From positions 7,522 to 71,521 of the forward strand of contig CAMVFY010000001.1 of assembly GCA_947166895.1 (NCBI GenBank): a stretch of DNA of 64,000 nucleotides, written 5' to 3'. A program made the translations under genes and the position numbers. Numbering within the stretch: position 1 is the stretch's first letter; the number at the start of each line of letters is the position of its first letter. Positions 28,804 to 56,117 of this stretch are shown here, in pieces. The notes beneath the pieces are model-generated. The model was not told the origin of the DNA and did no database searches. It saw nothing but the letters and a program-made list of their open reading frames with translations. Origin of the DNA: an uncultured Candidatus Saccharibacteria bacterium (GTDB taxonomy: Bacteria > Patescibacteriota > Saccharimonadia > Saccharimonadales > Saccharimonadaceae).

Positions 28804-28890
28804 TAGGAGCCATCATAATCTCCTCTTCGGACACGCTCAAGGGCGCTCGCCCAAGCTTACGGTCCTCAGAAGAGATTATGATGGCTTCTA
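28804..28890 (+). repeat. palindromic element in the pnp leader
   Basis: About 22-bp imperfect arms around a 41-bp core (28827-28867). Confidence 0.85.
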
Positions 28891-28930
28891 GGTCAATACC
28901 TGAAGTTTTCCCCAAGAAAGGATTATTTTT

Positions 28931-31108
28931 ATGGAAATAATTAACCCGAGTGGGAAGAAAACGGTGCGGGTTTCGACCGAGTGGCTAGGGCGAGAATTGA
29001 CGCTCGAGGTGAACCGAGTCGGGTTTCGGTCAACTTCGTCGGTTTTGGTGACCTACGGTGACACTGTGGTGCTTGGAAGTGTAGTGGTTGGAACGAAGCC
29101 GGTGGTGCAGGACTTCTTCCCTCTCTCGATTGATTACGAAGAAAAATTTTACGCGGCGGGGAAAATTAGTGGATCGAAATTCATTAAACGTGAGGGTAAG
29201 CCAGCGGATGAGGCAGTGCTAGTAGGGCGACTGATTGATCGACCGATTCGCCCGTTGTTTCCGAAGGGTTATCGGCAAGAAGTACAGGTGGTATGTACGG
29301 TATTATCAATGGATCCAGCGTTTCGGCCAGATTGCGTGGCGATGATTGCGGCATCGTCGGCACTAATGAATGCGGGTGTGCCGTTTGATGGGCCAGTAGC
29401 CGGGGTGAGAATTGGGCAGATTGCTGGGGAATTTAAGGCGTTCCTTAGCCCTGAAGAACGAGAGGTGTCGCCGCTTGACCTAGTAGTGGCTTGTAGAGAC
29501 GGTAAAGTGATGATGGTGGAAGCTGGTGCAAATGAGGTGACAGAAGCTACTATTATTGATGCGATGAAATGGGCGGTGAAGAACGTACAGCCGGTATTAG
29601 ATTTGCAAAGAGAGTTGTCGCGGCAGGTAGCGGCTCCGGCGCAAGAATATGAGTTAGTGCTACCTGATGAAGCGATTTTGAAGGAAGTTGAGGAATGGAC
29701 GAAGGGTAAATTTGGTTCGAAGGTGCGCGGTAATGTAATGGAGCGAGCACACATTTTGGATGACATTAAGTACGCGATGCATGATGAGTTTGCGCTTTCC
29801 AAGGGGCAGGGCGAGACAGACAACGAGAAAGTAGAATGGTATGATGAGAATTTGCGCGACGTATATGATCAAGCGTTTGAGCTGGCGGTATTTAAGGAAG
29901 TACGCCGAGGGATTGTGGAAGAAGGCGTGCGACCGGATGGACGAAAGCTAAATGAGGTACGGCCGCTGTCGAGCCAGGTGTCGATTTTGCCGAGAGTACA
30001 TGGGTCTTCCCTCTTTACGCGTGGGGTGACACAGGCGATGAACATTGTAACGCTTGCGCCGTTGTCGTATTCGCAAGAAGTGGACACAATGGAAGTGACT
30101 GACGGTAAAAGGCGTTATATGCATCACTATAATGCGCCGTCTTATACGGTGGGTGAGCCAGGGAGAATGGGGTCGCCTGGGCGTCGAGAAATTGGCCACG
30201 GATATTTGGCGGAAAGGGCGTTACTCCCGGTATTGCCTTCCGAGGAAGAGTTCCCTTACGCGATTCGCTCGGTGACTGAGATTATGTCGCAAAATGGTTC
30301 GACTTCGATGGCAGCGACATGCTCGTCATGTATGGCATTGATGGATGCGGGTGTGCCTCTTAAGCGGCCGGTGTCGGGCGTGGCGATGGGGCTAATGGTA
30401 GATGTACCCAAGGGGACTGAAATCACAGCGGATGATGTAGATAAAGCGTATGTTTTGACCGATTTGATGGATGCGGAAGATTTTGCTGGAGATATGGATT
30501 TTAAGGTAACGGGTACGACTGAAGGCGTGACGGCACTCCAGATGGACATGAAAGTGCACGGACTTCCGGTAGAAATCATGGAGAAGGCTTTGAAACAGAG
30601 CCATGAAGGGCGGATGTTTATTTTGAAACATATCCTTGAAGTGATTCCGGAACCGAGGAAAGAAATTTCAAAGTATGCACCACGAATTGAAAAGTTGATG
30701 ATTAAGCCCGAAAAGATTGGTGCGGTGATTGGCAAGGGCGGCGAGATGATCAATAAAATCACTACGGAGACTGGCGCCGAGGTTGATATTGAGGATTCAG
30801 GTCTCGTAACGGTATCTGGTAAAGATCCGGAAAAAATTGCAAAAGCTTTGGAGTGGATTAAAGGGCTAGTGGAAGAGCCGGAAGTAGGGAAAGTTTATAA
30901 TGGCACGGTGGTGACGATTAAGGATTTTGGTGCGTTTGTAAATATCATGCCGGGGATTGACGGAATGCTTCATATTTCACAGATTGTGGAAGGACGACGT
31001 TTGAAGAAGGTTGAGGAAGTTTTACATGTGGGTGATAAAGTACGGGTGCGCCTAGTCGCGATTGATAACGGAAAGCTGTCACTCACGATGATTGGTGTCG
31101 ACAAATAA
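28931..31108 (+). CDS. pnp: polyribonucleotide nucleotidyltransferase
   Basis: FFPLSIDYEEKFYAAGKI, RLIDRPIRPLF, RREIGHG.LAERAL, GDMDFKVTG, KH and S1 domains. Confidence 0.98.
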   Translation: MEIINPSGKKTVRVSTEWLGRELTLEVNRVGFRSTSSVLVTYGDTVVLGSVVVGTKPVVQDFFPLSIDYEEKFYAAGKISGSKFIKREGKPADEAVLVGRLIDRPIRPLFPKGYRQEVQVVCTVLSMDPAFRPDCVAMIAASSALMNAGVPFDGPVAGVRIGQIAGEFKAFLSPEEREVSPLDLVVACRDGKVMMVEAGANEVTEATIIDAMKWAVKNVQPVLDLQRELSRQVAAPAQEYELVLPDEAILKEVEEWTKGKFGSKVRGNVMERAHILDDIKYAMHDEFALSKGQGETDNEKVEWYDENLRDVYDQAFELAVFKEVRRGIVEEGVRPDGRKLNEVRPLSSQVSILPRVHGSSLFTRGVTQAMNIVTLAPLSYSQEVDTMEVTDGKRRYMHHYNAPSYTVGEPGRMGSPGRREIGHGYLAERALLPVLPSEEEFPYAIRSVTEIMSQNGSTSMAATCSSCMALMDAGVPLKRPVSGVAMGLMVDVPKGTEITADDVDKAYVLTDLMDAEDFAGDMDFKVTGTTEGVTALQMDMKVHGLPVEIMEKALKQSHEGRMFILKHILEVIPEPRKEISKYAPRIEKLMIKPEKIGAVIGKGGEMINKITTETGAEVDIEDSGLVTVSGKDPEKIAKALEWIKGLVEEPEVGKVYNGTVVTIKDFGAFVNIMPGIDGMLHISQIVEGRRLKKVEEVLHVGDKVRVRLVAIDNGKLSLTMIGVDK

Positions 31109-31109
31109 A

Positions 31110-31139
31110 TCAAAAATAGCCCCGTGGGGCTTTTTTGAT
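31110..31139. terminator. bidirectional intrinsic terminator
   Basis: tcaaaaatagcccc-gt-ggggcttttttga. Confidence 0.8.
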
Positions 31140-31244
31140 TGAGAATATTTAAAATCCGGTTCGGTTCTAAAACTAAAAGAGTTACCATTCGGATAGAGTG
31201 GTAACTCAAACAACCCGTGGCGGTGGCTAGGCGCCGCCCTTATA
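31112..31244 (-). ncRNA. candidate small RNA
   Basis: Orphan TTGACA-17-TACACT promoter on minus (31278-31250), two hairpins, ends at the bidirectional terminator. Confidence 0.4.
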
Positions 31245-31352
31245 AGTTAAGTGTAGGCTATATGGCAAAATCTGTCAAGATTGTGGCGTGTGCCAGAAAA
31301 AAGAACAAGGGAAGTTTTTGTCTTATAAGGTGGATGTTGTATAATTGGAAGA

Positions 31353-31898
31353 ATGGAAAAGATACGGAATTTTTGTATTATTGCGCATATTGATCACGGG
31401 AAGTCGACGATTGCAGATCGGATGATGGAGCTCACGGGGACGGTGGAAAAGCGCGAGATGAAAGCGCAGCTGCTCGATTCGATGGAGCTGGAGCGGGAAA
31501 AGGGGATTACGATTAAGCTCACTCCAGTGACGATGCAATGGAAGGGCTACACCTTGAACCTGATTGACACGCCGGGGCATGTGGATTTTTCGTACGAAGT
31601 GTCGCGGTCTTTGCAAGCGGTGGAGTCGGCGGTGCTAGTGGTAGATGCGACGCAAGGAATACAGGCGCAGACGCTGGCGAATGTATATCTAGCTTTGGAG
31701 CAAGATTTGATGATTATTCCGGTAATTAACAAAGTGGATTTGCCGGCAGCGGATGTTCCGAGGGTTGCGGCGCAAATTATAGATTTACTTGGATGTAAGC
31801 GGGAAGAAATTATTGAGGCGTCTGGCAAAACTGGGCTTGGTGTTGATAAGATTTTGGATGCAGTAGTGGAACGAGGCCCGGCGCCAAGAAAACCGTAA
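31353..31898 (+). CDS. lepA: elongation factor 4 (LepA), N-terminal half: complete G domain
   Basis: [56 protein letters not shown]; stops after the GPAP linker. Confidence 0.95.
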
Positions 31899-31976
31899 AA
31901 TTAAAGCGAAAGCGGGTTGACTTTGAATTGTGGAGTGATATACTAATATACAATATAGAACTCTAAAATAAGGCGT

Positions 31977-33545
31977 ATGAAAATGGCAATAAAAAAAGAA
32001 CCCGTGGGCGGGGATAATTACAAGGTAAATGCCGGTAAAAGTGGCATAGTGAAGCTTTTTGCGTGCGATGCGGCGGCGTTGATGCTGACGGTGCTGGTGG
32101 GGACAGTGTTAGCTAGCGTAAGAGCTGCGGCAAGCGACACGGTACAATCTAGAGCGGCGGTGACGGTGTCGTCATCTTGCCAGCTTGAGGCCGAGGTGGA
32201 CACGGCACATGAAGCGGAGGTAACCGCCAGCACCTATCGGGACAACATCGGGCAAACGACGATTACTGCGACTTGTAATGACGTGAATGGTTATGCGGTA
32301 TATGCGATTGGCTATACTAATACGGAGTTTGGTCGTAATGATATGCTGGGTGAGAATACCGGCAGGACGATTGCAACGGGTTCCGCTACATCGGGTAGCG
32401 TGTCTAACTGGGCGATGAAGCTAACTGCTGTATCGGGCGAAGTAGCGCCGACGATCGAGACGGGTTACCAGGCCTACCATGCGGTGCCAGATGAATACGA
32501 AAAGGTGGCGAGCTATGGTGGTAGTACGGTAAACTACGTGGCGGGCTCACAGTTTAGGACGACATACGCAACATATGTAGCAAGTGACCAGGCGCCAGAT
32601 ACGTACGTTGGTAAGGTAAAGTACACCTTAGTACACCCAGCGGATACAACCAATGCGCCTTGCTCAGCAACTTATACAATTGGCTATAATGCGAATGGTG
32701 GTACTGGCAGTATGGATAGCCAGACGGGATGTCTTGATACACCAATTACATTACTGCCAAACGGCTTTACGCCGAAGGCACCTCTAAACGAATACCAATT
32801 CGGTGCATGGAACACAGAGGCGGATGGTAGTGGGTACATTTACTGGCCGGGCCAAGCGGTGACGAACCTTTCTGCCCCGGATGGAATGGTGATACTTTAT
32901 GCAATGTGGATTCCGCGCTATATTCAGGACCTTACTCCTGGGGTGTGCCAGGCGATGACGGCCGAAGATCCGCTTACGATGATTGACCGTAGGGATGGTA
33001 ATGATTATACGGTCCGATACCTGCAAAACGCTTGCTGGATGACGCAAAACCTAAGACTAACCGATACGGTAAGCTCACAATACTCAAACTTTAGCACTAA
33101 CCCTACCTTTAACCCGTGTGTGGGTGACCTAACTGCAGGTAACACTTACGATGAGGCACGATGCCATGATTCGGGAAGTACTGAAACGGGTGTATGGTAT
33201 AACTACGCTTCAGCTTCGGCTGGCACCATCACAGGAAGCAGTAATAGTACAGCCGCTACTGAAGATATCTGCCCTGCTGGATGGCACTTACCAAGCTACG
33301 ATACAGCTAAGCCAGCTGGCTCCGTTAATAGTCTACTAGATTTGCCGATTAAATCTTACTTCTCCCCGGTTACCGGCGGCTACTACAGCGGCGGTAATAT
33401 CAGCAGTACCGGCATCGGTTACTGGTGGTCGTCTATCGCCCTCAATACCACGAATCGCTACGCCCTGTACTACAGTGGTAGTAGCCTGAATACCCGCAGC
33501 CTCGTCAGGAACAGCGGGTTCTATATTCGCTGCGTTAGAGAGTAG
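31977..33545 (+). CDS. DGR target protein: exported, Flg_new-like repeat plus C-terminal FISUMP-like domain
   Basis: N-terminal hydrophobic segment; YNANGGTG...WNTEADGSG; WMTQNLR, ICPAGWHLPS, GYWWSS, FYIRCVRE; 3' end is the VR. Confidence 0.92.
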   Translation: MKMAIKKEPVGGDNYKVNAGKSGIVKLFACDAAALMLTVLVGTVLASVRAAASDTVQSRAAVTVSSSCQLEAEVDTAHEAEVTASTYRDNIGQTTITATCNDVNGYAVYAIGYTNTEFGRNDMLGENTGRTIATGSATSGSVSNWAMKLTAVSGEVAPTIETGYQAYHAVPDEYEKVASYGGSTVNYVAGSQFRTTYATYVASDQAPDTYVGKVKYTLVHPADTTNAPCSATYTIGYNANGGTGSMDSQTGCLDTPITLLPNGFTPKAPLNEYQFGAWNTEADGSGYIYWPGQAVTNLSAPDGMVILYAMWIPRYIQDLTPGVCQAMTAEDPLTMIDRRDGNDYTVRYLQNACWMTQNLRLTDTVSSQYSNFSTNPTFNPCVGDLTAGNTYDEARCHDSGSTETGVWYNYASASAGTITGSSNSTAATEDICPAGWHLPSYDTAKPAGSVNSLLDLPIKSYFSPVTGGYYSGGNISSTGIGYWWSSIALNTTNRYALYYSGSSLNTRSLVRNSGFYIRCVRE

Positions 33546-33570
33546 CTAGTCCCCCTACAGGCCTCCACCC
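33353..33570 (+). repeat. DGR variable repeat (VR) including putative IMH
   Basis: 218 bp matching the reverse complement of 35626-35843 with 22 mismatches, all at TR adenines. Confidence 0.97.
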
Positions 33571-33579
33571 CAGGAGAAC

Positions 33580-33604
33580 GCGCCTCGGTCTGAGACCGAG
33601 GCGC
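33580..33604. promoter_or_regulatory. post-VR hairpin/cruciform
   Basis: gcgcctcggtc-TGA-gaccgaggcgc, perfect 11-bp stem 9 nt after the VR. Confidence 0.85.
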
Positions 33605-33630
33605 AGAGGTAATAAAAGAGGATTGACGAG

Positions 33631-34491
33631 ATGTTGCCAAAAACTGATCTGAACAAGAAAGAAGTTAGAGAAGCGATTTCGCACAATTCGCGTGGGCGTG
33701 GCAGAAGTGATGCGGAAAAGCGTGATTCGTTTGCTAAGTATCAAGACAACAAGAAAAAGGTAATTGAGCTGGAGCGCAAAAATTTACAATATCTCATTTT
33801 GTTTCCTGCTTCGGATGTTGATGTGAATAAAAAATATCGGTTTTATAACATGGGTGGTAATTCGGCGATTATTTACGTTCACGAAATTGCTCCAAGGCTA
33901 AAGCGCAAGGCCAAGATGCGTCGCGATATGGATCCTTGTTCGGAGAAAGAGAAGTTTCACAGTGGCATCTGTTCGATTGCAAATCTTGAAGGTTTGGAAG
34001 CGGCACTTCTTACTATCGACGTGAAGCGAATGAGCGTGAAAGGTGAAATTGTAATTTTTAAGCTAAACCGCGAGTATTCAAAAGACGAAATCAAAAACAT
34101 GTTGAAGCTGGAGCAGCAGAGGCTCGATTCTTTGAACGAACTAATTTACTCAAAAGTACTTTATCCGGATGTACACAAAAAAATCATTGATTTGAAACGT
34201 TCGATTCCGGCGAAGGTTAAAAACATGGAGAAAACTTATCGTGAAGTGGTGGGTATGGAGATGATAAAGTCTTTGATGACGCTTGTAAAAACATATTCGC
34301 AGGTTGCCCATGGTAATGATTCTCCAGAAAACGGTGGTAATGTAATGCTTGCTGCGTGCGATAATCTGCTCGCGGAAGTGTCGATGATGAATGAGCTTCG
34401 GGTGGGGGAAGTTGATGCGTGTATTCGGATAGCAAGTACAATAGTTGAACTAAAAAGAGCAATAAAGGGGAGGCTAAACAAGATACAATGA
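33631..34491 (+). CDS. DGR accessory protein: C-terminal Avd-like four-helix bundle, N-terminal possible MutS-I-like domain
   Basis: Directly upstream of RT (ATGA overlap); C-terminal about 110 aa helical with P..VK.M.K.YR...G pattern. Confidence 0.65.
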   Translation: MLPKTDLNKKEVREAISHNSRGRGRSDAEKRDSFAKYQDNKKKVIELERKNLQYLILFPASDVDVNKKYRFYNMGGNSAIIYVHEIAPRLKRKAKMRRDMDPCSEKEKFHSGICSIANLEGLEAALLTIDVKRMSVKGEIVIFKLNREYSKDEIKNMLKLEQQRLDSLNELIYSKVLYPDVHKKIIDLKRSIPAKVKNMEKTYREVVGMEMIKSLMTLVKTYSQVAHGNDSPENGGNVMLAACDNLLAEVSMMNELRVGEVDACIRIASTIVELKRAIKGRLNKIQ

Positions 34492-35624
34492 AGGTAAGTG
34501 ATGGGAACAACCGAGAATGGCTGCATGACGTGGAGAATCGGTTGTTGTTTGAACTATACATAGCTTACTTACAGGCGAGGGCTGGTGGAAAGCGTGGAAC
34601 TTTTGATGAACATAAGTTTGAGGTGAATGAGTTTGAGAATTTAATAAACTTGCGAGATAGCTTGATTGATAAAACTTATCGTCCGTCGAGAGGGACGGCA
34701 CACGTGATTTTTAAGCCTGTGATTAGAGAAATATTTGCGGCGTCTTTTCGCGATAGGGTGGTGCATCATTTTATTTACAATACGGTTTGTGATTGGTGGG
34801 ATAGACATTTTATTTATGATTCATATTCGTGTCGGGAAAATAAGGGAACGGATTTTGGAATTAAGAGGTTAAGCAGAATGTTGCAATCGGTAACGGATAA
34901 TTATAAAAAAGAAGCTTGGGTAATAAAACTGGATGTGCAAGGATATTTTATGAGTTTGCCACGTAAGCAGCTGTATCGGCGAGCAATATGGGGGCTTGAT
35001 AGACAATTTGAAAATAATCATAATTGGAAATACGAACTAGTAAAGTTCCTGTGGGCACAAACAATATTTGATGATCCGTGTGCTGGGGTGCGAAAGAAAG
35101 GCTGGCCTGAGGATTGGAAAGATTTGCCGGCTTCGAAAAGTTTGTTCACGCAATTGCCGGGGGTCGGGATTGTAATTGGTAATTTGACTTCACAATTGCT
35201 GTCGAACATCTATTTGGACCAGCTGGATAGATATATTAAGTATGAGTTAGGCTGGAAGTATTACGGTAGATATGTGGATGATTTTTTTATCATTGTAACT
35301 GAAGAACAGTTGCCGCGAGCTTTAGAGGACGTAAAGAGGATAGAGGCATTTTTGGGGAGACTAGGACTAACGTTGCATCCTAATAAACGCAAAGTACAGC
35401 CGGCTCGGAATGGAGTGGAGTTTTTGGGGGCAGTTGTATATCCTGGTAGAGTACATCCTGGGAAACGAATAGTAAAAAATGCTGGGATGGCGTTTTCTGA
35501 AGTTGTTGAGGGGGTGAAAGATGTTGAGAGTGTCGTGTCTTATATGGGGCACATGAAACACTATAATACCCAGATGTTAATGACAAAATTGTTTGACAAA
35601 GCTGGGTGGGACTATAGGAGTTAA
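34488..35624 (+). CDS. DGR reverse transcriptase
   Basis: REIFAASFRDRVVHH, DSYSCR..KGT, KLDVQGYF, IGNLTSQLLSNIYL, RYVDD, FLG; no group II intron X/En domains. Confidence 0.96.
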   Translation: MKVSDGNNREWLHDVENRLLFELYIAYLQARAGGKRGTFDEHKFEVNEFENLINLRDSLIDKTYRPSRGTAHVIFKPVIREIFAASFRDRVVHHFIYNTVCDWWDRHFIYDSYSCRENKGTDFGIKRLSRMLQSVTDNYKKEAWVIKLDVQGYFMSLPRKQLYRRAIWGLDRQFENNHNWKYELVKFLWAQTIFDDPCAGVRKKGWPEDWKDLPASKSLFTQLPGVGIVIGNLTSQLLSNIYLDQLDRYIKYELGWKYYGRYVDDFFIIVTEEQLPRALEDVKRIEAFLGRLGLTLHPNKRKVQPARNGVEFLGAVVYPGRVHPGKRIVKNAGMAFSEVVEGVKDVESVVSYMGHMKHYNTQMLMTKLFDKAGWDYRS

Positions 35625-35625
35625 T

Positions 35626-35843
35626 GGGTGGAGTCCTGTAGGGGGACTAGCTACTCTCTAACGCAGCGAATATAGTTCCCGTTGTTCCTGTTGTTGTTGT
35701 TGGTATTCAGGCTACTACCATTGTAGTTCAGGTTGTAGCGATTCGTGGTATTGTTGGCGATAGACGACCACCAGTAACCGTTGCCGGTATTGTTGATATT
35801 ACCGCCGTTGTAGTTGCCGCCGGTAACCGGGGAGAAGTAAGAT
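35626..35843 (-). ncRNA. DGR template repeat (TR), antisense to the RT operon
   Basis: Minus strand has 20 AAY codons in the VR frame; a minus-strand TATAAT lies at 36082-36077. Confidence 0.95.
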
Positions 35844-36117
35844 GCTTGGAGGACGCACTACTTCTTACAACAAATACACCGAAAGGAACTTCAGCCTAAT
35901 ACCCATTAGGAACGGAACGAAGAAGAAGCAACTTAAAACCTACTTGGTTCGTAAGTCAGGTAGGCGCTATGACCTTCACTCATCACGAAGGGTGCTTCTG
36001 GCCTCCACCCTTACTGCGACCTTTTAGCGACACCGTGATCTACTGCCAGGTCGGAGGGATATTCCCCCATGTTGTTATTATATTATGTTATAATTATCTT
36101 AGTAATGAGAGAGGTGT

Positions 36118-36963: not shown

Positions 36964-37067
36964 CATTTTATAGCATTAGCGTTATATTGAGGTTACAAAA
37001 GGTCATACAAAAATAAAAAGGTCATACAAACATACCAAGCTTTGGTGTTTTGTGCCAAGGAAAACAC

Positions 37068-39182: not shown

Positions 39183-39227
39183 AGTGAAACGGAGGGAGAC
39201 GAGGCCACAATATGGTATAATACGGGT

Positions 39228-44528: not shown

Positions 44529-44539
44529 CAGGAGGTGTG

Positions 44540-45834: not shown

Positions 45835-46368
45835 GTGAGTATAGGTGCAGTACTGACAAATGATAAAAAACAAGGCGTTGGTAGTTTTGTTTTTGTTTTT
45901 TTGGTTTTAATGATTCTGATTGTTGGCTTAACGATCGGGATCATTATTTTTAATGTTAGAAATAGTAGGGATGCTGATGAGGTAAGTATTGATGCTGCAC
46001 AAGAAGATTTGGCGGTTGCCTATTGGGCTGATTCGGTTACAACTGATATCATAGTGAAGTTGGAGGCGGGCGAAGGGTATACTTTGGATGAGGCTAGGTT
46101 GGATTTTGAAAAATTGCTAGATGAGAATGAGGGGCGTGAAAAATATTATTTGACGGTGCAATTCGCGTATTTTATTTATTTTTACTATGGCGACATCGGA
46201 TGGTCGGTCAATGTGCTGAATGGGGTGGACGAGTTGGTGGGGGATAGTTTGCGGATGGATTACTATTTGTCGTATAGGAATTTATATGAGATGGCAGAGG
46301 ATGAAAGCCAGGCGCGATATTATGACGATTTGATTAAGGAGGTCATGGAGAAAAATGCGACTAAGTAA
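45835..46368 (+). CDS. single-pass membrane protein, partner 1
   Basis: TM helix then helical acidic domain; paralogous in layout to 50078-50638. Confidence 0.7.
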   Translation: MSIGAVLTNDKKQGVGSFVFVFLVLMILIVGLTIGIIIFNVRNSRDADEVSIDAAQEDLAVAYWADSVTTDIIVKLEAGEGYTLDEARLDFEKLLDENEGREKYYLTVQFAYFIYFYYGDIGWSVNVLNGVDELVGDSLRMDYYLSYRNLYEMAEDESQARYYDDLIKEVMEKNATK

Positions 46369-49300
46369 AAAAAATGGCTTGATTGTGGGGATTTTGGCGT
46401 TTGCTTGTTGTGCTTTATGTGGTGGGAATGTGTTTGCGGATGGTGATGGATGGGTGGGGACTGGCGGGACTCCTGGTGGACAATCTGGGGGAGGAGGCAG
46501 TAGTTGTTTAGCGAACGTTTACGATACCAATGGAACTATATTGCAGTATGGCTATGATAATTATCGATATAGAATAGACTGTGCTAAAGTTTCGTGGATT
46601 TATTATGAGGCCCAGCCTGGCGGGGGAAACTATCCAGTTACGATTGCGCCAGACTCTAGACTTGGCGGTGGTGAAACGGCGCAGATTCCTGAGGTTTGCT
46701 ATCATGATGGGCAGGGTGGTTTTTGGCACTATGGTGTAAATAGGCAAAGTACGAAAAATGGAATAATAGAATGTTCTTGGTCTGGATGTGTGCCGAATTA
46801 TAGTGCGATGCCGCACAAGTGGGGGCACTGGATGACGGTGACGGTTGGTGATGGGTACGGAGAGGCGATGCCTGGTCAGGAAGGTTATGACAATCGTTTT
46901 AATTTGTCGCCAGATAATCCTTTTGGATGGCATGTAAATGAATTGGGGCATACGATGTATTCGTCTGTCGATAGCGGCACGAGGTATACGGCTACGAGAG
47001 CGGCTCTTTCGGGGGATTCCGAACTGCTAGATGATTATAAAAATGCTCTGCTATATTTTGACGACAATAGAAGCGAAAACGAAATAATGAATTTGACGCG
47101 GATTGATAATGGCGTGTGGGGATTTTGTGCGTGGGAGGGAATGAATAAAGAGTATTATGCATCGTCGAATATTTCTAATGGAATAAACTGGAAAGGGACC
47201 GGAAGAGTTAAGGAAAACGCCACGGTAAACTTAAACCCGGATCGTTTGGTGACAATACCGGACGGTGCGACGAATATAACGGTGGCGGGGGCTTTAAGGT
47301 TTAGTCACAATATTTATGCGTCTTTTGAGGATACGTCAAGCTCTAACTGGAGAGTAGAGAGGAGCGGGAATGGTTTTTCTGATTCTAGCGTTTCTATGAG
47401 TAGAACCAATACACCTGCTGCACAATATTCTGGTTCGACGACGATAACTAGTAAAATTACTAGCAGTCTTTATCAGGCGACAACGCGGCCGTTTGGGGAT
47501 GGAGAAAATTATTACATATCTAGGGATGTTTTTGATGTGACTTTTTCGAAAGAGGGGACTTATGAGTTTTGTGAGTCTTTATATTTAAGTAATAGTGCGG
47601 TTTCTAATAAAAGATTGACTACTGTATGCACTACTTATAAAGTTTCAAAAGAATCGTCGCCGCCACCGCCACCGCCTAGTGTTGAAATTTGTGATAGATG
47701 GACGCCAGCTAGCTACACGAGTTCGTATTTGGATTCCGATAATAATGGTCAGGGGACGACTTCCGTGGTTTCAAAGGTTAGAAATAACACGTTGGGTGGA
47801 GATTATGTAAATAGCGTATATGCTAAACCAACGGACAATATAAATTGGGCACACTGTTATTATCCGGGGATACAAAAGATTGCATCGGCGCTAGCTACAA
47901 GTGTTCATGGTAGTCATAGCGAAATGCTACCAGACGGAAGTAAGACCACCAATATCAATACCATTATGTCACAACTATATGCGTGGGGTAATTATTTTAG
48001 CGTGACTTCGTCTGTGAGTAAAGGGAGCAATTTTAGAAATCCGAATTCTACTAGTACTGGCAACTATCGTGTTGGTACGTTGACGCCGACTATTTATAAT
48101 GGTGGTAGATATGCGATTGGGAGTTCTGGAGTGAAGTCGCTGCTTGATAACACTTATCGTGTTGAGTACGGTAGCGGAAAAAATAAAGCCGGTGCAACGT
48201 TGACTGAAACAAATAAGAGTAGTAGGCCGACTTCTGCAGTGGTCTGGAATGAACACATCCATGTTTGGTCTTGTAATTATGAAGAAAGTTGCGAAAAATG
48301 CGGTTCTTATTCGTGTAATTGTGTTTCATGTAATTGCGAGGAAGTTTGTACGGGTGAGGGAGAGGACCAGTCATGTACGATAGTATGTGATACTTGCTGC
48401 GATATTTGTTGCTATTCTTGTGCGTGGGGTAGATGTGAACATTCGAACAATTACTATGGGAGTTTTTGTCATGAGAATGTCGCTTCTGACCATGCTGACG
48501 TGCTAGTGCCGTATAATTTCATTAATACTGCTACTATTAGTTTAAACTCTAGCTACGTTTATGCTGGTGAAATAGCAACGATTGGTTCGTCGGCTGTACA
48601 GATTCGGACTAAAAGTAATAATGTAACGCGGGGGACTTATGCTACACAGGTAGATGATGCCAAAGTGAAATTCGTGGCGTATTTATCTAGTAGTAACTCT
48701 GGCTCGGCAAAAGAAGGAGTAGGAAGCGGCAAAGCGTACAATATTTGTAATGCACTAAGTGGCTATGAGGCTTGTAATGAACTGGATTCGCGCGATGGAG
48801 CTACGCTAAATTCTAGTGGGGTGTTAGGCCTTGGGACTTCGCCAAGCACACAAGTAGCGTCTAACTCTCTAACTTCGCTCATGGGTTCTTCTTATAATGT
48901 TTATGATGGTCGGGCGGGTAAGTATTATTGCGTGGTGGCGGCGGTTTATCCGTATACTAGTGGTACTGATACCAATATGGATGCAAGTGGTAGCAATAAT
49001 TGGTATGTGTCGGCGCCTTCTTGCGCGGTAATCGCAAAAAAACCAAGCCTCGAAGTATGGGGGAATGGGCTTTATACTGCTGGAAAAGTGTTTACTGCTT
49101 CGGCTGAGAAGAGGGTGATAGATGGTTTTGTGGGCTTTACCCCGAGATCATCAAGCAATACTACTGTTTTTGGTTCGTGGGTAGAAACTAACATTATTGC
49201 TAATGGGCAAGTGGCGGGATTGGCAAGTGGAGCGGCAACGGGATTTCCGGGTTATACTATCAGGACTCTAACTAATGGAGTTCAGAGACTGAGCGGTAGT

Positions 49301-50026
49301 AGGGAAGGAAGTACTAGAAGATTTTGTACGTATCGTAGCCCACTAACAATGCCAAATGCTGGTTGTCTTACTACAATAGGGGGGTTACCTGGAGTGAACG
49401 TTGGTAGCTTGGGCAGTCCGGCGGCAGGGATGAACAAGCCCGTAGACCGTGACGCCCTAATTGCTCGCTTCATGACTGAAGACGGAACCTTTAAATATAG
49501 AAATACCTATACAAGACTCAGTCAACTAGTCTCAGAACTTGGCTCTACTATCATCCCAGCTGGTCAAAACCAAACTTACGTGATTGATGCTAGTGGTAAA
49601 ACATTTACCATTGATTCCAATATCCAGTATGCAGAACTTTACAATAACTTTACGGATATACCAAAACTAATTATTAGGGCAGACAATATCAATATCAATT
49701 GTAACGTTAATAGAATTGATGCAGTACTAATTGCTGACAAAATACAAAATAACACAGTAGCAGGCAACGTAAATACTTGCAGCAATGCTGGTGGGGTTGA
49801 TGACAGTGCTAGATCTAACCAACTTAAAATCAATGGTGCAGTAATCACTGGTTCGCTTACAGCTAATCGTACTTATGGTGCTGGAGTAGGAGCTTATTCA
49901 GTAATTCCAGCTGAAATCGTTGATTATGACTCTTCCCTTTATATTTGGGGTTCACAACGAGCTGAGGCTTCTGCTTCGGGGAAGTTAGATGTAATCTATT
50001 TACGCGAATTGTCTCCAAGATTATAA
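46355..50026 (+). CDS. giant secreted protein, paralog 1, with Cys-rich insert
   Basis: Signal peptide; colinear with 50610-54161; ends RELSPRL. Confidence 0.8.
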   Translation: MRLSKKNGLIVGILAFACCALCGGNVFADGDGWVGTGGTPGGQSGGGGSSCLANVYDTNGTILQYGYDNYRYRIDCAKVSWIYYEAQPGGGNYPVTIAPDSRLGGGETAQIPEVCYHDGQGGFWHYGVNRQSTKNGIIECSWSGCVPNYSAMPHKWGHWMTVTVGDGYGEAMPGQEGYDNRFNLSPDNPFGWHVNELGHTMYSSVDSGTRYTATRAALSGDSELLDDYKNALLYFDDNRSENEIMNLTRIDNGVWGFCAWEGMNKEYYASSNISNGINWKGTGRVKENATVNLNPDRLVTIPDGATNITVAGALRFSHNIYASFEDTSSSNWRVERSGNGFSDSSVSMSRTNTPAAQYSGSTTITSKITSSLYQATTRPFGDGENYYISRDVFDVTFSKEGTYEFCESLYLSNSAVSNKRLTTVCTTYKVSKESSPPPPPPSVEICDRWTPASYTSSYLDSDNNGQGTTSVVSKVRNNTLGGDYVNSVYAKPTDNINWAHCYYPGIQKIASALATSVHGSHSEMLPDGSKTTNINTIMSQLYAWGNYFSVTSSVSKGSNFRNPNSTSTGNYRVGTLTPTIYNGGRYAIGSSGVKSLLDNTYRVEYGSGKNKAGATLTETNKSSRPTSAVVWNEHIHVWSCNYEESCEKCGSYSCNCVSCNCEEVCTGEGEDQSCTIVCDTCCDICCYSCAWGRCEHSNNYYGSFCHENVASDHADVLVPYNFINTATISLNSSYVYAGEIATIGSSAVQIRTKSNNVTRGTYATQVDDAKVKFVAYLSSSNSGSAKEGVGSGKAYNICNALSGYEACNELDSRDGATLNSSGVLGLGTSPSTQVASNSLTSLMGSSYNVYDGRAGKYYCVVAAVYPYTSGTDTNMDASGSNNWYVSAPSCAVIAKKPSLEVWGNGLYTAGKVFTASAEKRVIDGFVGFTPRSSSNTTVFGSWVETNIIANGQVAGLASGAATGFPGYTIRTLTNGVQRLSGSREGSTRRFCTYRSPLTMPNAGCLTTIGGLPGVNVGSLGSPAAGMNKPVDRDALIARFMTEDGTFKYRNTYTRLSQLVSELGSTIIPAGQNQTYVIDASGKTFTIDSNIQYAELYNNFTDIPKLIIRADNININCNVNRIDAVLIADKIQNNTVAGNVNTCSNAGGVDDSARSNQLKINGAVITGSLTANRTYGAGVGAYSVIPAEIVDYDSSLYIWGSQRAEASASGKLDVIYLRELSPRL
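49437..49989 (+). repeat. 553-bp direct repeat, copy 1
   Basis: No mismatch found by eye against 53572-54124. Confidence 0.92.
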
Positions 50027-50077
50027 ATTATGTTAAATAATAATTAGATTTTATTTTTCTTATGCTATAATGGGAGT

Positions 50078-50638
50078 ATGAAAAATGATGAAGGCGTATC
50101 TTTTGGTAGCAGGAAACGTTCTGACAGGTTGCTCATTGGCATTTTTGTTACGTTAATGGTGGTGATTGTTGGCTTGGGTATTGCGGTGACGCTTAGCTTT
50201 GTTTTAAATGGTAATTCGGAAGATAAAGAATCTGATTTGCCGGAAAACGCTGTGACACAAAATGACGCTTTTTCGGTGGCTTTTGGAATAAATGAACGCT
50301 ACGACAATGATCCAGACTACTATTATGATGAAGCGGTGGCCGACTATGAGCAGCAAATGTCTCAGGGTGACGACTGGTATAAGTTTTCGATAGCATGTTA
50401 TTACGCTCGATTTTTGCGAGATCAGGGCAATGACTTAAATGCTGCGCTTGATGTGATGGGAAGAGCTGGGGAGTATGTAAAGACTGATAATGCGAATCAG
50501 ATGATTGACTATTATGTAGTTGTTCGGGATTTATACAAAGGTGTTAATGATGAGATGTATGATTATTATAACGGAGAAATAATCAAACTTAGTACGGTAA
50601 AGGAGGTTAATGATGCGGGTTTGCCAGTCGAAGAATAA
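50078..50638 (+). CDS. single-pass membrane protein, partner 2
   Basis: TM helix then Tyr/Asp-rich helical domain. Confidence 0.7.
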   Translation: MKNDEGVSFGSRKRSDRLLIGIFVTLMVVIVGLGIAVTLSFVLNGNSEDKESDLPENAVTQNDAFSVAFGINERYDNDPDYYYDEAVADYEQQMSQGDDWYKFSIACYYARFLRDQGNDLNAALDVMGRAGEYVKTDNANQMIDYYVVVRDLYKGVNDEMYDYYNGEIIKLSTVKEVNDAGLPVEE

Positions 50639-53600
50639 TTGGCAGATAAAGCTTGTCGCTATTTTGATGATTTTTTTGGCTTTAGGTATAAGTTTTGCTG
50701 CAGGAAAGGAAGTTTTTGCCGAAAATGGGGCGGAGGTACTTACTGGCAACGTTTTGAACAAGTGGGGCGGAGGTGGCAGTGGAGTTAACTGTAATGACCG
50801 ACTATTTTCGACTTATGCCGCTGAGTGCCAGGGTTACTCATGGGTATTTTACGCAAGCACAGGAAATGTATCAGACATGACTTTTCGGCCGGATATGACT
50901 GCCAATGATTGGCCTCAATCTTCTCAGGGTATTTATATTCCGCAAACCTGTTCTGAGCATACGGAAGATGGTGGTGGTTTTTGGCATTTTGGTCAGAATG
51001 CTAGGGCGCTGAGTAACAGCGGCTGGAGTTATTTTGGGAACTTTATGTATTTGAATGGCTATGGTGGAAAAGCGACGGATACTTATACTTACTCTACGTC
51101 GTCTGGGAGTTATGGTCATATTTTTACGACTAGCTATCAGTATGGAAGCGGTAACTTAACTGTACCGCCTTCTGGGGTGAGCCAATCTTTGTATAAGAAT
51201 GGTGCTGAAATATATTACGCAAGTAAGGTTGAATCTGGGACGAATCATAGTGGGGATAGTGGAGTTTGGGCTGATTGGTTGAAGGCTTATAAATACAAAA
51301 ATGGTTCGGAATATACCGGAAGTGATTTCCCCAGTGATTTGTATGCGTTTTGCTACTGGGGGTCAATGGATTCGGAATACTTTGCGCGTTCAAGTATTTC
51401 GAACGGGATTGAATGGAAGAGTACAAATTTTGTGGGGACGTCGGATGAAACGCCCCGTAAGGTGACACTCACTAAACGGGTGGTCGTGATTCCTGAAGGT
51501 TCTAATGAGGTTAAGGTGGAAGGCGGTTTAAGGTTTAGCCACAACATATATGCGTCGTTTAAAGATAAAGAGAATACGGCGTGGAATGTGGTAAAGGAAT
51601 TTCCTAGCGACGGAGTGAGTGCAACAAAAACTAATCAGCCAGCGATATACAGTGGTTCTACGCCTTTGAATGTTGATTTTCTTGAGTCTCTTTATCAAGC
51701 TCCGGCAAACAAGCAACCATTTGTGGATGGTAATGATACTTATATTTCTAGGGATGTTTATGATTTAGTCTTTACTAAAGCTGGGACTTACACTTTTTGT
51801 GAAAAATTGTCGATCAATAATAAGAAGACCGAAAATGCAAATAGAGAGATGACTGCAGTTTGTGCGGTTTATGAAGTTAAGAAGAATGATACTCCTCCAG
51901 ACGGTGGCGGTGGTGGTGGCGTTACGCCCCCTCCGTCCACATGTGGTTTGTGGACACCGGCTAGCTACACGGCATCTAGCAAAACGTCTGGTAACACTTC
52001 GGTGGTGTCAAAGGTGAGAAATGCGACACTTGGTACCAGCTATGAGGACAGCGTATATGCTAAGCCAACTGATAACACACAGTGGATTCACTGTTATTAT
52101 CCGGGCGCACAAAAGGTGGCTTTTACGGATGCTACAATGGTTCACGGAGCACACGACTCGTCGCTAAGTGCGGGAGGAACTACCGCAAACACGAATGTGG
52201 CACTTTCGAGCTTTGCGCCATGGTCTAATCAATTTAAGGTTACATCTACGAACCTTAGAAACCCGTCTCCAAATGGGGGAAGTTATAGCTACGGTGACTC
52301 AGCGACTAAATCCTTAGAAGATACGAGTTATAACGTCGAATATGGTACCGGTAAGAATAAGGCCGGCAAAACTTTGGTAGAAACTTCGACTGGCAAGTTG
52401 GCCTACGCAAATGTTACCAATGAGGGAAAACACAGCTGGGCGTGTGACTATTACGAGTCATCAAGCTGTAGCAACTGTGGTTCGTATTCTTGTAATTGTT
52501 CTACGGATGAAGACGGAAATGAGTCGTGTGATACATGTTGCTATAGTTGTACTTATTCGCATAGTAATTGTACTCACTCAAATGATTATATCGCTCACAG
52601 TAATGGTGGAACTGTTACTGATCATGCAGATGTATTAGTGCCATTTAACTTTTACAATGTGACTACAATTACGCTGAAAGACGGGCCTGTGTATTCTGGT
52701 GAAACGGCTACGATTAGCTCTTCTAATGTTCAGACGCTAACTAGAACCAATAATGTGACACGAGGGACCTACGCTACGCATGTAGAAAATGCAAAAGTAG
52801 TGTTTGCGGCGTATGTTTCGTCTAGCGGTAGCGGCAGTGCGAAAGAAGGTATTGGGAGCGGAAAAAGTTATGACATTTGTGGTGCAGTTAGTGGGGCGGA
52901 GGATTGTACGGAGATAGATAGTCGGGATGGACTCGCTTTGAATTCGAGCGGTGTTTTGAAATTAAACTCTTCGGAGAAAACTGAAGCGGCATCGAGCTCG
53001 TTAACTTCTCTTATGAGTTCGACGTATAACGCCTTTGATGCTTCGGCCGGTAAGTATTATTGTGTTGTGGCGGCGGTTTATCCATACACGGTGAGTTCTG
53101 ATACGGATATGAACGCTGCTGGTAGCAATAGCTGGTATGTTTCGGCTCCGAGTTGTAGGGTGATTGCCAAAAAGCCAGCTTTTCAGGTATGGGGAAATGG
53201 TTTATACACTGCTGGTAAAGTATACACGATTTCGGCTGAAAAGCGTATAACGAAGGGTTTTTATGATTTATCTAGAAGTACAGCTAAGGACGGGAAGAAT
53301 TTGACGACCTTTGGCTCTTGGGTGGAAACCAGTATTATTGCTAATGGTCAAGTGGCGGGGTTGGCAAGTGGTGCAGCGACGGGATTTTCTGGCGATACCG
53401 CAAGGACCTGGGCGCAAGGCTTAGGGGGAAGTAAAAATAGTATTTCTTCTAGTAGCTCTGGTGTTTGTGTGCTTGGTCCGTTGACTTTTCCGAATATAAG
53501 ATGTGTAACGCAGGGATCGCTTCCGGGTATATCTGCCAGCGTTGTCGGTGGTTCAGGGGCTAAGATGGCGGAGCCCGTAGACCGTGACGCCCTAATTGCT

Positions 53601-54161
53601 CGCTTCATGACTGAAGACGGAACCTTTAAATATAGAAATACCTATACAAGACTCAGTCAACTAGTCTCAGAACTTGGCTCTACTATCATCCCAGCTGGTC
53701 AAAACCAAACTTACGTGATTGATGCTAGTGGTAAAACATTTACCATTGATTCCAATATCCAGTATGCAGAACTTTACAATAACTTTACGGATATACCAAA
53801 ACTAATTATTAGGGCAGACAATATCAATATCAATTGTAACGTTAATAGAATTGATGCAGTACTAATTGCTGACAAAATACAAAATAACACAGTAGCAGGC
53901 AACGTAAATACTTGCAGCAATGCTGGTGGGGTTGATGACAGTGCTAGATCTAACCAACTTAAAATCAATGGTGCAGTAATCACTGGTTCGCTTACAGCTA
54001 ATCGTACTTATGGTGCTGGAGTAGGAGCTTATTCAGTAATTCCAGCTGAAATCGTTGATTATGACTCTTCCCTTTATATTTGGGGTTCACAACGAGCTGA
54101 GGCTTCTGCTTCGGGGAAGTTAGAGACAGTCTATATCCAAGAACTATCGCCGAGATTATAG
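50610..54161 (+). CDS. giant secreted protein, paralog 2, with Cys-rich insert
   Basis: Signal peptide; ends QELSPRL. Confidence 0.8.
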   Translation: MMRVCQSKNNWQIKLVAILMIFLALGISFAAGKEVFAENGAEVLTGNVLNKWGGGGSGVNCNDRLFSTYAAECQGYSWVFYASTGNVSDMTFRPDMTANDWPQSSQGIYIPQTCSEHTEDGGGFWHFGQNARALSNSGWSYFGNFMYLNGYGGKATDTYTYSTSSGSYGHIFTTSYQYGSGNLTVPPSGVSQSLYKNGAEIYYASKVESGTNHSGDSGVWADWLKAYKYKNGSEYTGSDFPSDLYAFCYWGSMDSEYFARSSISNGIEWKSTNFVGTSDETPRKVTLTKRVVVIPEGSNEVKVEGGLRFSHNIYASFKDKENTAWNVVKEFPSDGVSATKTNQPAIYSGSTPLNVDFLESLYQAPANKQPFVDGNDTYISRDVYDLVFTKAGTYTFCEKLSINNKKTENANREMTAVCAVYEVKKNDTPPDGGGGGGVTPPPSTCGLWTPASYTASSKTSGNTSVVSKVRNATLGTSYEDSVYAKPTDNTQWIHCYYPGAQKVAFTDATMVHGAHDSSLSAGGTTANTNVALSSFAPWSNQFKVTSTNLRNPSPNGGSYSYGDSATKSLEDTSYNVEYGTGKNKAGKTLVETSTGKLAYANVTNEGKHSWACDYYESSSCSNCGSYSCNCSTDEDGNESCDTCCYSCTYSHSNCTHSNDYIAHSNGGTVTDHADVLVPFNFYNVTTITLKDGPVYSGETATISSSNVQTLTRTNNVTRGTYATHVENAKVVFAAYVSSSGSGSAKEGIGSGKSYDICGAVSGAEDCTEIDSRDGLALNSSGVLKLNSSEKTEAASSSLTSLMSSTYNAFDASAGKYYCVVAAVYPYTVSSDTDMNAAGSNSWYVSAPSCRVIAKKPAFQVWGNGLYTAGKVYTISAEKRITKGFYDLSRSTAKDGKNLTTFGSWVETSIIANGQVAGLASGAATGFSGDTARTWAQGLGGSKNSISSSSSGVCVLGPLTFPNIRCVTQGSLPGISASVVGGSGAKMAEPVDRDALIARFMTEDGTFKYRNTYTRLSQLVSELGSTIIPAGQNQTYVIDASGKTFTIDSNIQYAELYNNFTDIPKLIIRADNININCNVNRIDAVLIADKIQNNTVAGNVNTCSNAGGVDDSARSNQLKINGAVITGSLTANRTYGAGVGAYSVIPAEIVDYDSSLYIWGSQRAEASASGKLETVYIQELSPRL
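53572..54124 (+). repeat. 553-bp direct repeat, copy 2
   Basis: No mismatch found by eye against 49437-49989. Confidence 0.92.
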
Positions 54162-54180
54162 GGCATGTTATAATGGGGGT

Positions 54181-55530
54181 ATGAAAAAACGGAGTCAGTT
54201 TGTTTGTCAGCAATGCGGGGCTTCCTATGCTAAATGGGTAGGACAGTGCACGAATTGTCGGGCCTGGAACTCTCTGATTGAACAGATTGTTGATGAAGTC
54301 GGTGACAAAAAGACGACTTTGGCGAAAGGGCAACTTTCTGGTAAAAAGTTAGATTTTGTAAAATTATCGTCAATCACGCCGTCTGATGCAAAAGCAAGGT
54401 TGGTGACGGAGTTTAAGGATTTAAATACTGTGCTGGGTGGTGGGATACTGCTCGGTTCGGTCTCTTTGCTGGCTGGGCAGCCGGGGATTGGGAAGTCGAC
54501 GCTACTTATGCAGATTTGTGCGGAAGTAGCAAAGACTCGAAAAGTTTTATACATATCGGGCGAAGAGTCGGCAGGGCAAGTGAAGCTTCGGGCGGTGCGG
54601 CTTGGTGCGGGTTCAGACAATTTGAGTTTTGCGGCGTCAACATCGGGAAATGATATTGCTAAAACAATTGAGGCGGGTGAGTTTGACCTCGTGATTGTGG
54701 ATTCGATTCAGACACTTGCGATGGATGAAATATCGTCGGCGCCGGGCACGGTATCGCAAGTAACAAATTGTGGTAATTTGATTATTCGAGCAGCAAAGGC
54801 GACTGATACAGCGGTAGTGATTGTGGGGCATGTGACGAAAGAGGGAACCTTGGCGGGGCCGAAAGTTTTGGAGCATTTGGTGGATGTGGTGCTGAATTTT
54901 GAGGGGGATAGATACGGTGGGTTTAAAACAGTGCGGGCGGTAAAAAACCGGTTTGGATCGACGAACGAGGTAGCAATTTTTGAAATGGCACCAGAAGGAT
55001 TAAAAGAAGTACAAAATCCGTCGGCAGCTTTGCTTGCCGAAAGGACTAATACGGATGGTTCAATTATTCTTGCAACTTTGGAAGGGAATCGGCCGATCTT
55101 GGTGGAAATACAGGCGCTTGCGACTACGTCAAATTATGGTTACCCAAAAAGAACAGCGAGTGGATTTGATTTGAACCGGCTAAATTTGCTGATTGCGGTA
55201 CTTGAGCGGCGGACAAAATTGAAATTATCAGATAAAGATATATTCGTAAATGTGGTTGGCGGGATGAAGCTTAATGATTCGGCGGCAGATTTGGCGATCT
55301 GTATGGCAATCGCTTCGGCGGTAGCGGGGAGGAAGTTGAGTGAGGAATATGTAGTATTTGGTGAAGTGGGGCTTGGTGGTGAAATTCGGTCGGCGTTTCG
55401 GGCGGATCAGAGAATAGCCGAAGCGAAAAAACTTGGATTTAAGCATGCGATTGGTCCGGTGACGATTCGGGATAAATTTGTGGTGCCGGTGAAAGATTTG
55501 CGCGAAACTTTAATTAGGTATGTAAAATGA
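54181..55530 (+). CDS. radA: DNA repair protein RadA/Sms
   Basis: FVCQQCG...KWVGQCTNC zinc finger, GQPGIGKSTLL, KNRFG, Lon-like C-terminus. Confidence 0.97.
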   Translation: MKKRSQFVCQQCGASYAKWVGQCTNCRAWNSLIEQIVDEVGDKKTTLAKGQLSGKKLDFVKLSSITPSDAKARLVTEFKDLNTVLGGGILLGSVSLLAGQPGIGKSTLLMQICAEVAKTRKVLYISGEESAGQVKLRAVRLGAGSDNLSFAASTSGNDIAKTIEAGEFDLVIVDSIQTLAMDEISSAPGTVSQVTNCGNLIIRAAKATDTAVVIVGHVTKEGTLAGPKVLEHLVDVVLNFEGDRYGGFKTVRAVKNRFGSTNEVAIFEMAPEGLKEVQNPSAALLAERTNTDGSIILATLEGNRPILVEIQALATTSNYGYPKRTASGFDLNRLNLLIAVLERRTKLKLSDKDIFVNVVGGMKLNDSAADLAICMAIASAVAGRKLSEEYVVFGEVGLGGEIRSAFRADQRIAEAKKLGFKHAIGPVTIRDKFVVPVKDLRETLIRYVK

Positions 55531-56036
55531 GGATTCTTGGAATTGATCCGGGGATTGGAATCTGTGGGTTTGGGTTGATTGAAACGACGTCGCGGGCGCG
55601 GGCGCTAGATTTTGGTGCAGTTACAACGATGGTGGATGCGCCTTTGCCGGCTCGGTTGAAAGAACTATACGATTCCTTGTCGGAAGTATTTGAGGAGACG
55701 AAACCAGAGATGGTAGCCGTAGAAAAGTTGTTTTTTGCAAAAAACATTACGACTGGAATTGCGGTGGCTGAGGCGAGGGGGATTGTGCTACTTGTTGCTG
55801 AGCAGCATGGGTTACCGGTTTATGAATATACTCCGAACGAAATCAAAAAGAGTTTGACTGGTTATGGTGCGGCGACTAAAACTCAGATTGAGGAAATGGT
55901 GCGAGTGCATTTGGGGCTTGAGTGCAAGCCAAAGCCGGATGATGCGGCGGATGCGCTGGCGGTGGCGATTACTTGCAGTTTTCTTTATGAGCATGGTCAA
56001 AATCAAGAATATAGTTTTTCAAATTCGCGTCGTTAA
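55527..56036 (+). CDS. ruvC: Holliday junction resolvase RuvC
   Basis: ILGIDPG, VEKLFF, AEARG, YTPNEIK..LTGYG.A.K, PDDAADALAVA. Confidence 0.96.
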   Translation: MRILGIDPGIGICGFGLIETTSRARALDFGAVTTMVDAPLPARLKELYDSLSEVFEETKPEMVAVEKLFFAKNITTGIAVAEARGIVLLVAEQHGLPVYEYTPNEIKKSLTGYGAATKTQIEEMVRVHLGLECKPKPDDAADALAVAITCSFLYEHGQNQEYSFSNSRR

Positions 56037-56117
56037 AATATGAGATTTTCTTTCTCGGACACGCTCAAGGGCGCTCGCCCGAGCTTATGGTCCTCGAAAT
56101 GAAAATCTCATATTTTA
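56034..56117 (+). repeat. palindromic element between ruvC and ruvA
   Basis: Perfect 17-bp arms taaaatatgagattttc / gaaaatctcatatttta around a 41-bp core that is 39/41 identical to 28827-28867. Confidence 0.9.

Follow-up and report, generated by a model that had tools for sequence, protein, structure and literature searches.

The stretch analyzed here (the window; 64,000 nucleotides, contig C1, positions 7522-71521) comes from the 0.66-Mb genome (44% GC) of an uncultured Candidatus Saccharibacteria bacterium, denoted G000, and contains two copies of a short palindromic element, one in the leader of pnp and the other between ruvC and ruvA (Table 1). The 41-bp cores of the two copies agree at 39 of 41 positions, as stated in the original prediction, and no core match was found in any of 100 shuffled versions of the window. 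A pair of imperfect inverted arms of ~21 bp, specific to the copy, closes each core, and the resulting hairpins fold strongly, at -51.4 kcal/mol for copy 1 (z = -9.5 vs shuffled sequences) and -41.6 kcal/mol for copy 2 (z = -7.9).

Copy 1 lies between a promoter-like site and the pnp start codon where, together with ~20 bp of new arms, it occupies the apical loop of a native leader hairpin (51-nt arms, 76% complementary in an inverted-repeat search). In the closest relative, G002 (RuvA 92% identical), the pnp leader has a matching outer stem (GGGAAGACGGCAGATATG ... TATCTGGAGTTTTCCC) with a short loop and no element, and the placement of copy 1 in the leader, proposed at the outset, can thus be refined to the apex of a native hairpin. 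In Escherichia coli, a stem in the pnp leader is cut by RNase III; by analogy, copy 1, which lengthens a native leader stem of this kind, plausibly has an effect on pnp. Copy 2 fills the space between the ruvC stop codon and the ruvA start codon. In G002, these two genes overlap (ATATGA), and the window genome has ~94 nt more, consisting of the hairpin and a -10-like box (TGATACAAT). Judging from this arrangement, copy 2 has separated ruvC from ruvA, which formerly overlapped, and lies directly next to a new promoter-like box; an effect on ruvA is plausible as well. Many copies of the element are laid out as A-tract, stem and T-tract and lie at gene ends, and either window copy might act in termination or processing; a simple terminator scan had no hit at these two copies because the loop is too large for such a scan.

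Using a mismatch search and a covariance model (R1), we identified 9 strong copies and 1 weak copy in G000, including the two in the window; the eight others range from strong to weak, and their arms, 12-22 bp long, are all different. In the genus, there are ~170 copies, and 24 of the 37 species genomes carry 1-23 copies each, so the expectation that the core recurs in this genome and its relatives was borne out. No copy was detected in 24 genomes from other families of the order, and within the genus, presence is patchy among sister species. The relatives in the genus are labelled Candidatus Nanosyncoccus or Candidatus Saccharibacteria metagenome-assembled genomes and come from ruminant and other guts.

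When one genome per prokaryote species was scanned for the pattern, more than 118 stretches were obtained; besides Saccharibacteria, their sources include ~22 named Bifidobacterium species. Model R1 detected the element in 57 of 131 Bifidobacterium species genomes, with between 1 and 30 copies per carrier. In Bifidobacterium, the core reads CGACACACTCAAGGCCGTTCGGCCAAGCTTACGGTCG, and its 28-mer centre, ACACTCAAGGCCGTTCGGCCAAGCTTAC, is identical in many Saccharibacteria copies. These cores are likewise closed by locus-specific arms, which are GC-rich and 25-30 bp long. Most Bifidobacterium copies lie outside open reading frames (ORFs), and 7 of ~10 that were inspected are located directly downstream of a gene, in the sense orientation; some are followed by CTACG (CGTAG on the opposite strand), and the paired or clustered copies flank ordinary genes. 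One further copy (L127), with AT-rich arms, is in G068, a genome labelled Bulleidia. At 0.6 Mb, this genome is of a size typical of Saccharibacteria, and given this size and the AT-rich arms, we suspect a mislabelled bin. Neither the IMG/VR viral contigs nor the PLSDB plasmids contain the core. Two local expansions were noted. G009 (L063-L078) has a burst subfamily of at least 12 copies with P2 = GGAG/CTCC and shared arms (AAATCCACTAGCATTA..), located inside a larger mosaic repeat at contig ends, and in B. erythrocebi (G067:C20:276500-284500, L243), an ABC-transporter operon located downstream of dnaE is flanked by three identically oriented copies that have their arms in common.

Comparison of 105 non-redundant copies showed that the arms are not wholly unrelated, contrary to the original prediction, which had correctly described them as self-complementary. 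The 6-8 bp adjoining the core are semi-conserved (consensus TCTTTTTC before GGAC), within a stretch of ~8-12 bp (TCTTTTTCGGAC / GTCCTCAAAARA; 0.25-0.9 bits per position) that is internal to the full hairpin, and the information content falls to ~0 bits only from position 13 outward. Based on this position-specific information, we delineate a conserved unit of ~57 bp, which consists of the 41-bp core and ~8 bp of semi-conserved stem, with TCTTTTTC preceding GGAC and TCAAAARA following GTCC. Counted from GGAC, the stems have a median length of 26 bp, and the truly locus-specific paired part, which shows no sequence conservation, accounts for ~14 bp.

The fold is supported by covariation. In the outer helix and P2 (GGAC/GTCC), all ten pairs vary on both sides, 86.8% of the cells are paired, and the covariation score was reached by none of 500 shuffles; when the register was slid, the signal collapsed. 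The apical stem pair alternates between CG (64 copies) and GC (38 copies), and a domain of 32 nt or ~95 nt can stand in for the apical hairpin. The sequence of the internal loop is invariant (5' side, ACRCUCRA; 3' side, RAGCUUAYG). Covariation and position-specific information thus agree with the description of a conserved loop on a variable stem. Folding of single sequences had suggested an additional helix, P3 (G13-C34, C16-R31), but the alignment gives it no support, and the respective bases belong to the invariant internal loop. The core is open in 4 of the 6 reading frames.

The element behaves as an insertion. In G002, which has no copy, empty sites correspond to all nine loci of the window genome. 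Among the Saccharibacteria copies, 43 of 109 (~40%) lie in long ORFs, of which 25 are in the sense orientation, 15 are antisense and 3 are ambiguous. In the window genome, in-frame inserts are present in TsaD (..AAEGQ[HALFGHAQGRSAKLMVLKEHADLRP]GD..), at the N-terminus of GyrA, and in two other proteins (encoded on C10 and C29). At site 2 of tsaD, 23 genomes have an empty site of exactly 87 nt, whereas a few, among them G000 and G025, have an insert. The element also varies between two Bifidobacterium genomes whose shared loci are 94-100% identical (83-100% at individual loci). Of the several loci that differ, one has an insert of ~150 nt, larger than the hairpin itself, in only one of the two genomes (flank identity, 83-94%); another keeps the same arms but has the ~95-nt apical domain. 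A metagenome scan for strain-level empty pnp sites found only the already known relative. Across nine filled/empty junctions, there is no consistent direct repeat that would indicate a target duplication, and no ORF-bearing relative of the element was found. Searches against Rfam covered the window and 7 carrier loci (six from Bifidobacterium and one from the genome labelled Bulleidia); no match attained the gathering score, and at E <= 10 there were only spurious miRNA-hairpin matches. A full-text literature search with the core sequence and descriptive keywords found no matching description. These results support the original view of a repeat family that behaves like an insertion and could not be assigned to any described one. 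Near the copy on C7 of G000 (C7:2560-2620), ~80 nt 5' of the element are 100% identical to G002 within diverged surroundings; this stretch may be a small conserved RNA or regulatory site.

The short-core family is accompanied by other palindromic inserts. The original prediction had grouped the inserts in murB, recX and truB with the two window copies, but this grouping did not hold. The recX and truB inserts belong to a long-core family (..CTCGGGGCGCGTCGCTCGCNCCCGTCGNNACGGGGC..CTCCGGACCCCCT..) of at least 13 copies with locus-specific inverted arms, in frame in recX, truB and site 1 of tsaD, which has only the basal ends in common with the short core. The murB insert represents a different core family with its own conserved ends, the fourth in our count. 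In four loci of other genomes (L198, L200, L202 and L225), the short core is nested in the apex of a murB-type hairpin. At the gyrA and tsaD sites of other species, the long core takes the place of the short core on the same arms. One more family, with a GC-rich core (GTCATACGCTGGG...CCGTCAGGAATATAC), has locus-specific arms too. TsaD varies from ~340 to at least 445 amino acids within the genus (L031-L060; one uncurated read-through frame spans 520 amino acids) because two surface sites, after HVYANWL and after PGGPxIAKAA, have been repeatedly filled by different palindromic inserts.

Table 1. Features of the two short-core copies and of related palindromic inserts (positions without a contig name refer to the window; those with one refer to contigs of G000)
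Feature	Position	Strand	Description
Promoter-like site of the pnp leader	28734-28762	+	TTGCGA-17-TGnTATAAT
Native pnp leader hairpin	28782-28912	+	outer stem GGGAAGACGGCAGATATG / TATC(C)TG.AGTTTTCCC; copy 1 in apical loop
Copy 1, left arm	28806-28826	+	GGAGCCATCATAATCTCCTCT; outer part locus-specific; inner CTCCTCT, semi-conserved pyrimidine stretch; not in G002
Copy 1, core	28827-28867	+	P2 GGAC/GTCC, conserved internal loop, apical GGGC-GCUC-GCCC hairpin; 76 bits with model R1
Copy 1, right arm	28868-28889	+	AGAAGAGATTATGATGGCTTCT; not in G002
pnp start codon (ATG)	28931	+	preceded by AAGAAAGGA
Copy 2, left arm	56034-56054	+	TAAAATATGAGATTTTCTTTC; starts with the ruvC stop codon TAA (56034-56036)
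Copy 2, core	56055-56095	+	77.6 bits with model R1
Copy 2, right arm	56096-56117	+	GAAATGAAAATCTCATATTTTA; overlaps -35-like hexamer of the ruvA promoter-like site
ruvA promoter-like site	-10 ends at 56128; ruvA ATG at 56136	+	TGATACAAT; -10-like box 7 nt before ATG
murB insert (fourth family)	21308-21415	+	in frame; conserved ends CGGGTCCTGCCG ... CGTCACCCG
Long-core element in recX	23229-23346	+	in frame; locus-specific arms; core TCGGGACGCTCC...CCCGTCTTCACGGGG...CCCCTC
Long-core element in truB	24542-24655	+	in frame
Other long-core copies	C8:8208-8321, C9:3628-3745, C22:2819-2934, C32:317-419		
Other murB-type copies	C11:14676, C12:3567, C12:6853, C15:10325		
GC-rich core family	C18:13402-13486, C5:9072-9219, C7:5201-5298		GTCATACGCTGGG...CCGTCAGGAATATAC

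In many genes, TGnTATAAT boxes are found 6-9 nt 5' of the start codon (in the window, 56120-56138 and 28721-28762; in many relatives, L083-L105), a spacing that suggests mostly leaderless mRNAs. The pnp gene, with a leader of ~160 nt and a ribosome-binding site (AAGAAAGGA), is an exception to this layout.

The mobilizer named as a candidate in the original prediction, a REP-associated tyrosine transposase (RAYT) or another TnpA of the Y1 type, was not found in any carrier tested. The Y1_Tnp domain (PF01797) had no match in G000 or in any of the 24 carrier genomes of the genus; the only matches in this search were in G023 and G061, both of which contain no copies of the element. Nor was there a match in 6 further carriers (five Bifidobacterium genomes and G068). 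Matches were obtained in the controls. The core includes TCAA and TTAC, tetranucleotides that could pass for IS608-like cleavage sites; given that there is no Y1 gene, we treat them as a coincidence. The orientation of the element matches the sign of the local GC skew in ~20 of 25 short- and long-core copies (p = 0.004), including those in minus-strand genes, which hints at a single-stranded DNA stage. The GC skew of G000 is itself unusually strong (approximately +-0.22-0.29 over 20-kb windows) and parallels the gene-strand bias.

What remains to be explained is how a conserved centre came to be closed by a different stem at each site. The account that we favor, and consider somewhat more probable than not, is that of a non-autonomous palindromic insertion element that was exchanged between Bifidobacterium and this Saccharibacteria genus and whose stem is made and kept locally. 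Under this account, the ~57-bp unit, a GC-rich structured core with short imperfect terminal inverted repeats, would enter spacers, the apices of pre-existing hairpins, and coding regions where the extra peptide is tolerated. The folded element would then prime the copying of the adjacent flank, by snap-back or template switching, producing an inverted copy of neighboring DNA, and hairpin-templated correction would keep both arms complementary as they drift. The composition of the arms follows the resident genome: the GC content of the variable arms is 0.40 vs 0.36 in the flanks in Saccharibacteria and 0.59 vs 0.56 in Bifidobacterium, with a core GC content of 0.61 in both. In a search of the genome for donors, no arm had a second copy. 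Several intergenic copies also fit the originally proposed inverted copying of target DNA, at least in the outer arm. In three of these (L182, L180 and L129), the TGnTATAAT box of the neighboring leaderless gene falls within one arm, and a decayed inverted version of it is found in the other. In the G000 copies C7 and C4b, the outer 8-10 nt of one arm coincide with a conserved gene end, stop codon included. In G000, G004 and G063, the gyrA copies occupy a common site, and their pairing is kept by two-sided changes, even though G063 has the long core on those arms; at site 2 of tsaD, G006 likewise has another core on related arms. A more specific version, in which this transposase-less hairpin element builds its stem anew at each site by hairpin-primed flank copying, resulting in an inverted rather than a direct target duplication, swaps cores on existing stems, and moved recently between Bifidobacterium and gut Saccharibacteria, can only be put forward tentatively. 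As for the direction of transfer, from bifidobacteria to Nanosyncoccus appears likelier because the core GC content matches that of bifidobacteria and carriers are commoner among them.

Several observations weigh against local making of the stem. At the coding sites in tsaD, gyrA and C29, where the inverted-copy claim failed, the insert is the whole hairpin (78, 81 and 69 nt), neither arm is present in the empty alleles, and the native part of an arm does not exceed ~6 nt. Therefore, the inner variable arm at these sites cannot be ascribed to snap-back copying of the flank now present; it must be carried from elsewhere or made otherwise. Paralogous copies in the G009 burst and in B. erythrocebi share arms, which shows that the element can take its arms along. 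As read on the TCGG strand, arm mismatches are A.C (108) more often than G.T (68; p = 0.003), unlike what would be expected of a hairpin selected on that strand. Furthermore, the analysis revealed neither a mobilizing enzyme nor a direct target duplication, and the invariance of the internal loop could instead reflect a cellular function.

Some of these observations are readily accommodated if the whole hairpin, arms included, is mobile but moves rarely, or by cut-and-paste with loss of the donor, and its stem drifts fast through compensatory or copy-corrected changes while the core stays constant, a possibility that we take seriously without favoring it. Both arms are within the insert at the three coding sites, ~5 of 13 positions distinguish the arms of orthologous gyrA copies, which have changed on both sides while their cores are alike, the Bifidobacterium arms retain a degenerate common theme that is G/T-rich (..GGGGCATG..), and the information content declines gradually outward from the core. 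With a layered-arm model in mind, we sought non-orthologous copies that share inner but not outer arms, but arms in common were limited to orthologues, the three neighboring B. erythrocebi copies and the G009 burst. The match between arm and resident GC content in both phyla would, however, require full amelioration of the arms next to an unchanged core with an identical 28-mer, and native -10 boxes and gene ends are part of one arm at several sites. Nor is the drift particularly fast in tsaD, where G000 and G025 differ by ~4 of 19 positions per arm vs 4 of 41 in the core, only about twice the rate. The position of copy 1 in the pnp leader and of the nested copies in the apex of murB-type hairpins suggests another option, namely, that the ~57-bp unit homes into existing hairpins, such as terminators, back-to-back promoters, leader stems and palindromic repeats, and the arms are simply the old hairpin. 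In line with this, G002 has an ordinary terminator-like hairpin in the spacers that contain the C4b and C7 copies in G000, two copies (L005 and L197) lie between divergent leaderless genes whose predicted -10 boxes, held in both arms, form a natural palindrome, and different cores occur on the same arms. We nevertheless consider this option improbable: the empty coding sites contain no hairpin, ~20 bp of new paired arms come with the element even in the pnp leader, and the terminator stems of G002 are unrelated in sequence to the G000 arms.

Even less probable is a cellular structured RNA or single-stranded DNA motif, for instance, a protein-binding internal loop, a module for RNase III or termination, or a ribozyme, that needs only a closing stem and whose spread is secondary. 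The nucleotides of the internal loop are invariant across two phyla between helices that vary in both sequence and length, as expected of such a motif, and the position of Bifidobacterium copies just downstream of genes, as well as the A-tract, stem and T-tract layout common in Saccharibacteria, would also fit. However, the element is associated with no class of genes, its distribution among sister species is patchy, its orientation tracks the GC skew rather than the gene strand, and neither Rfam nor the terminator scan of the window copies lends it support. With so many copies in frame, and in both orientations, a function solely as a cellular RNA is unlikely.

Among the known systems, the Rickettsia palindromic elements (RPE), attributed to Ogata and colleagues (2000 and 2002), are reportedly small palindromic repeats found in frame in essential genes, where the peptide is tolerated, as well as in spacers, with no transposase known. 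The present element is similar in being a small palindromic repeat of a reduced genome that is inserted both in spacers and in frame in genes, here tsaD, gyrA and those on C10 and C29. The RPE consensus, however, is full-length, ends included, whereas here only the centre and ~8 bp are conserved, the outer stem is locus-specific, and two phyla are involved. Repetitive extragenic palindromic (REP) sequences and their doublets (REPINs), together with palindromes derived from IS200/IS605, are likewise short hairpin repeats, and their bias in strand or orientation would fit a stage as single-stranded DNA, but there the arms, with a 5' GTAG-type tag, are conserved and the loop is variable, the reverse of a conserved centre with arms of ~0 bits beyond position 12, and a RAYT or Y1 gene would be expected in the carriers. 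With classical miniature inverted-repeat transposable elements (MITEs; Correia, RUP, ERIC), the element shares the non-autonomous, multi-copy character and the potential to provide promoter or terminator signals or to insert in frame. Short imperfect terminal inverted repeats around a core may be a further similarity, although the semi-conserved stretch that would represent them is internal to the full hairpin. The element differs from MITEs in the lack of a visible direct target duplication, the lack of a detected parent insertion sequence (IS), and the extra ~14-bp paired, locus-specific arms outside the unit. The GC clusters of yeast mitochondria and the repetitive hairpin-forming elements of sponges are similarly GC-rich, self-folding inserts in spacers and genes of AT-richer genomes, without a transposase, but their hosts and sequences are different and variable outer stems are not a defining feature, so this is an analogy only. 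Finally, integron attC sites have conserved outer boxes and a variable centre, the opposite layout.

If this interpretation is correct, essential proteins are reshaped by a family of small palindromic inserts not described before (TsaD, GyrA, MurB, RecX and TruB), and so are spacers, in the ultra-small genomes of these epibionts. The combination of a conserved centre with a locus-specific stem reverses the layout of REP, REPIN and MITE and points to structure-driven making of inverted repeats. For genome annotation, such inserts account for many unusual N-terminal extensions in the genus, as well as for many low-complexity peptides within its proteins. The near-identical core in Bifidobacterium and in one Saccharibacteria genus is a trace of DNA exchange across phyla and provides a lead on the hosts of gut Saccharibacteria; if the transfer was indeed recent, it would point to Bifidobacterium as an organism on which Nanosyncoccus epibionts live or from which they obtain DNA.

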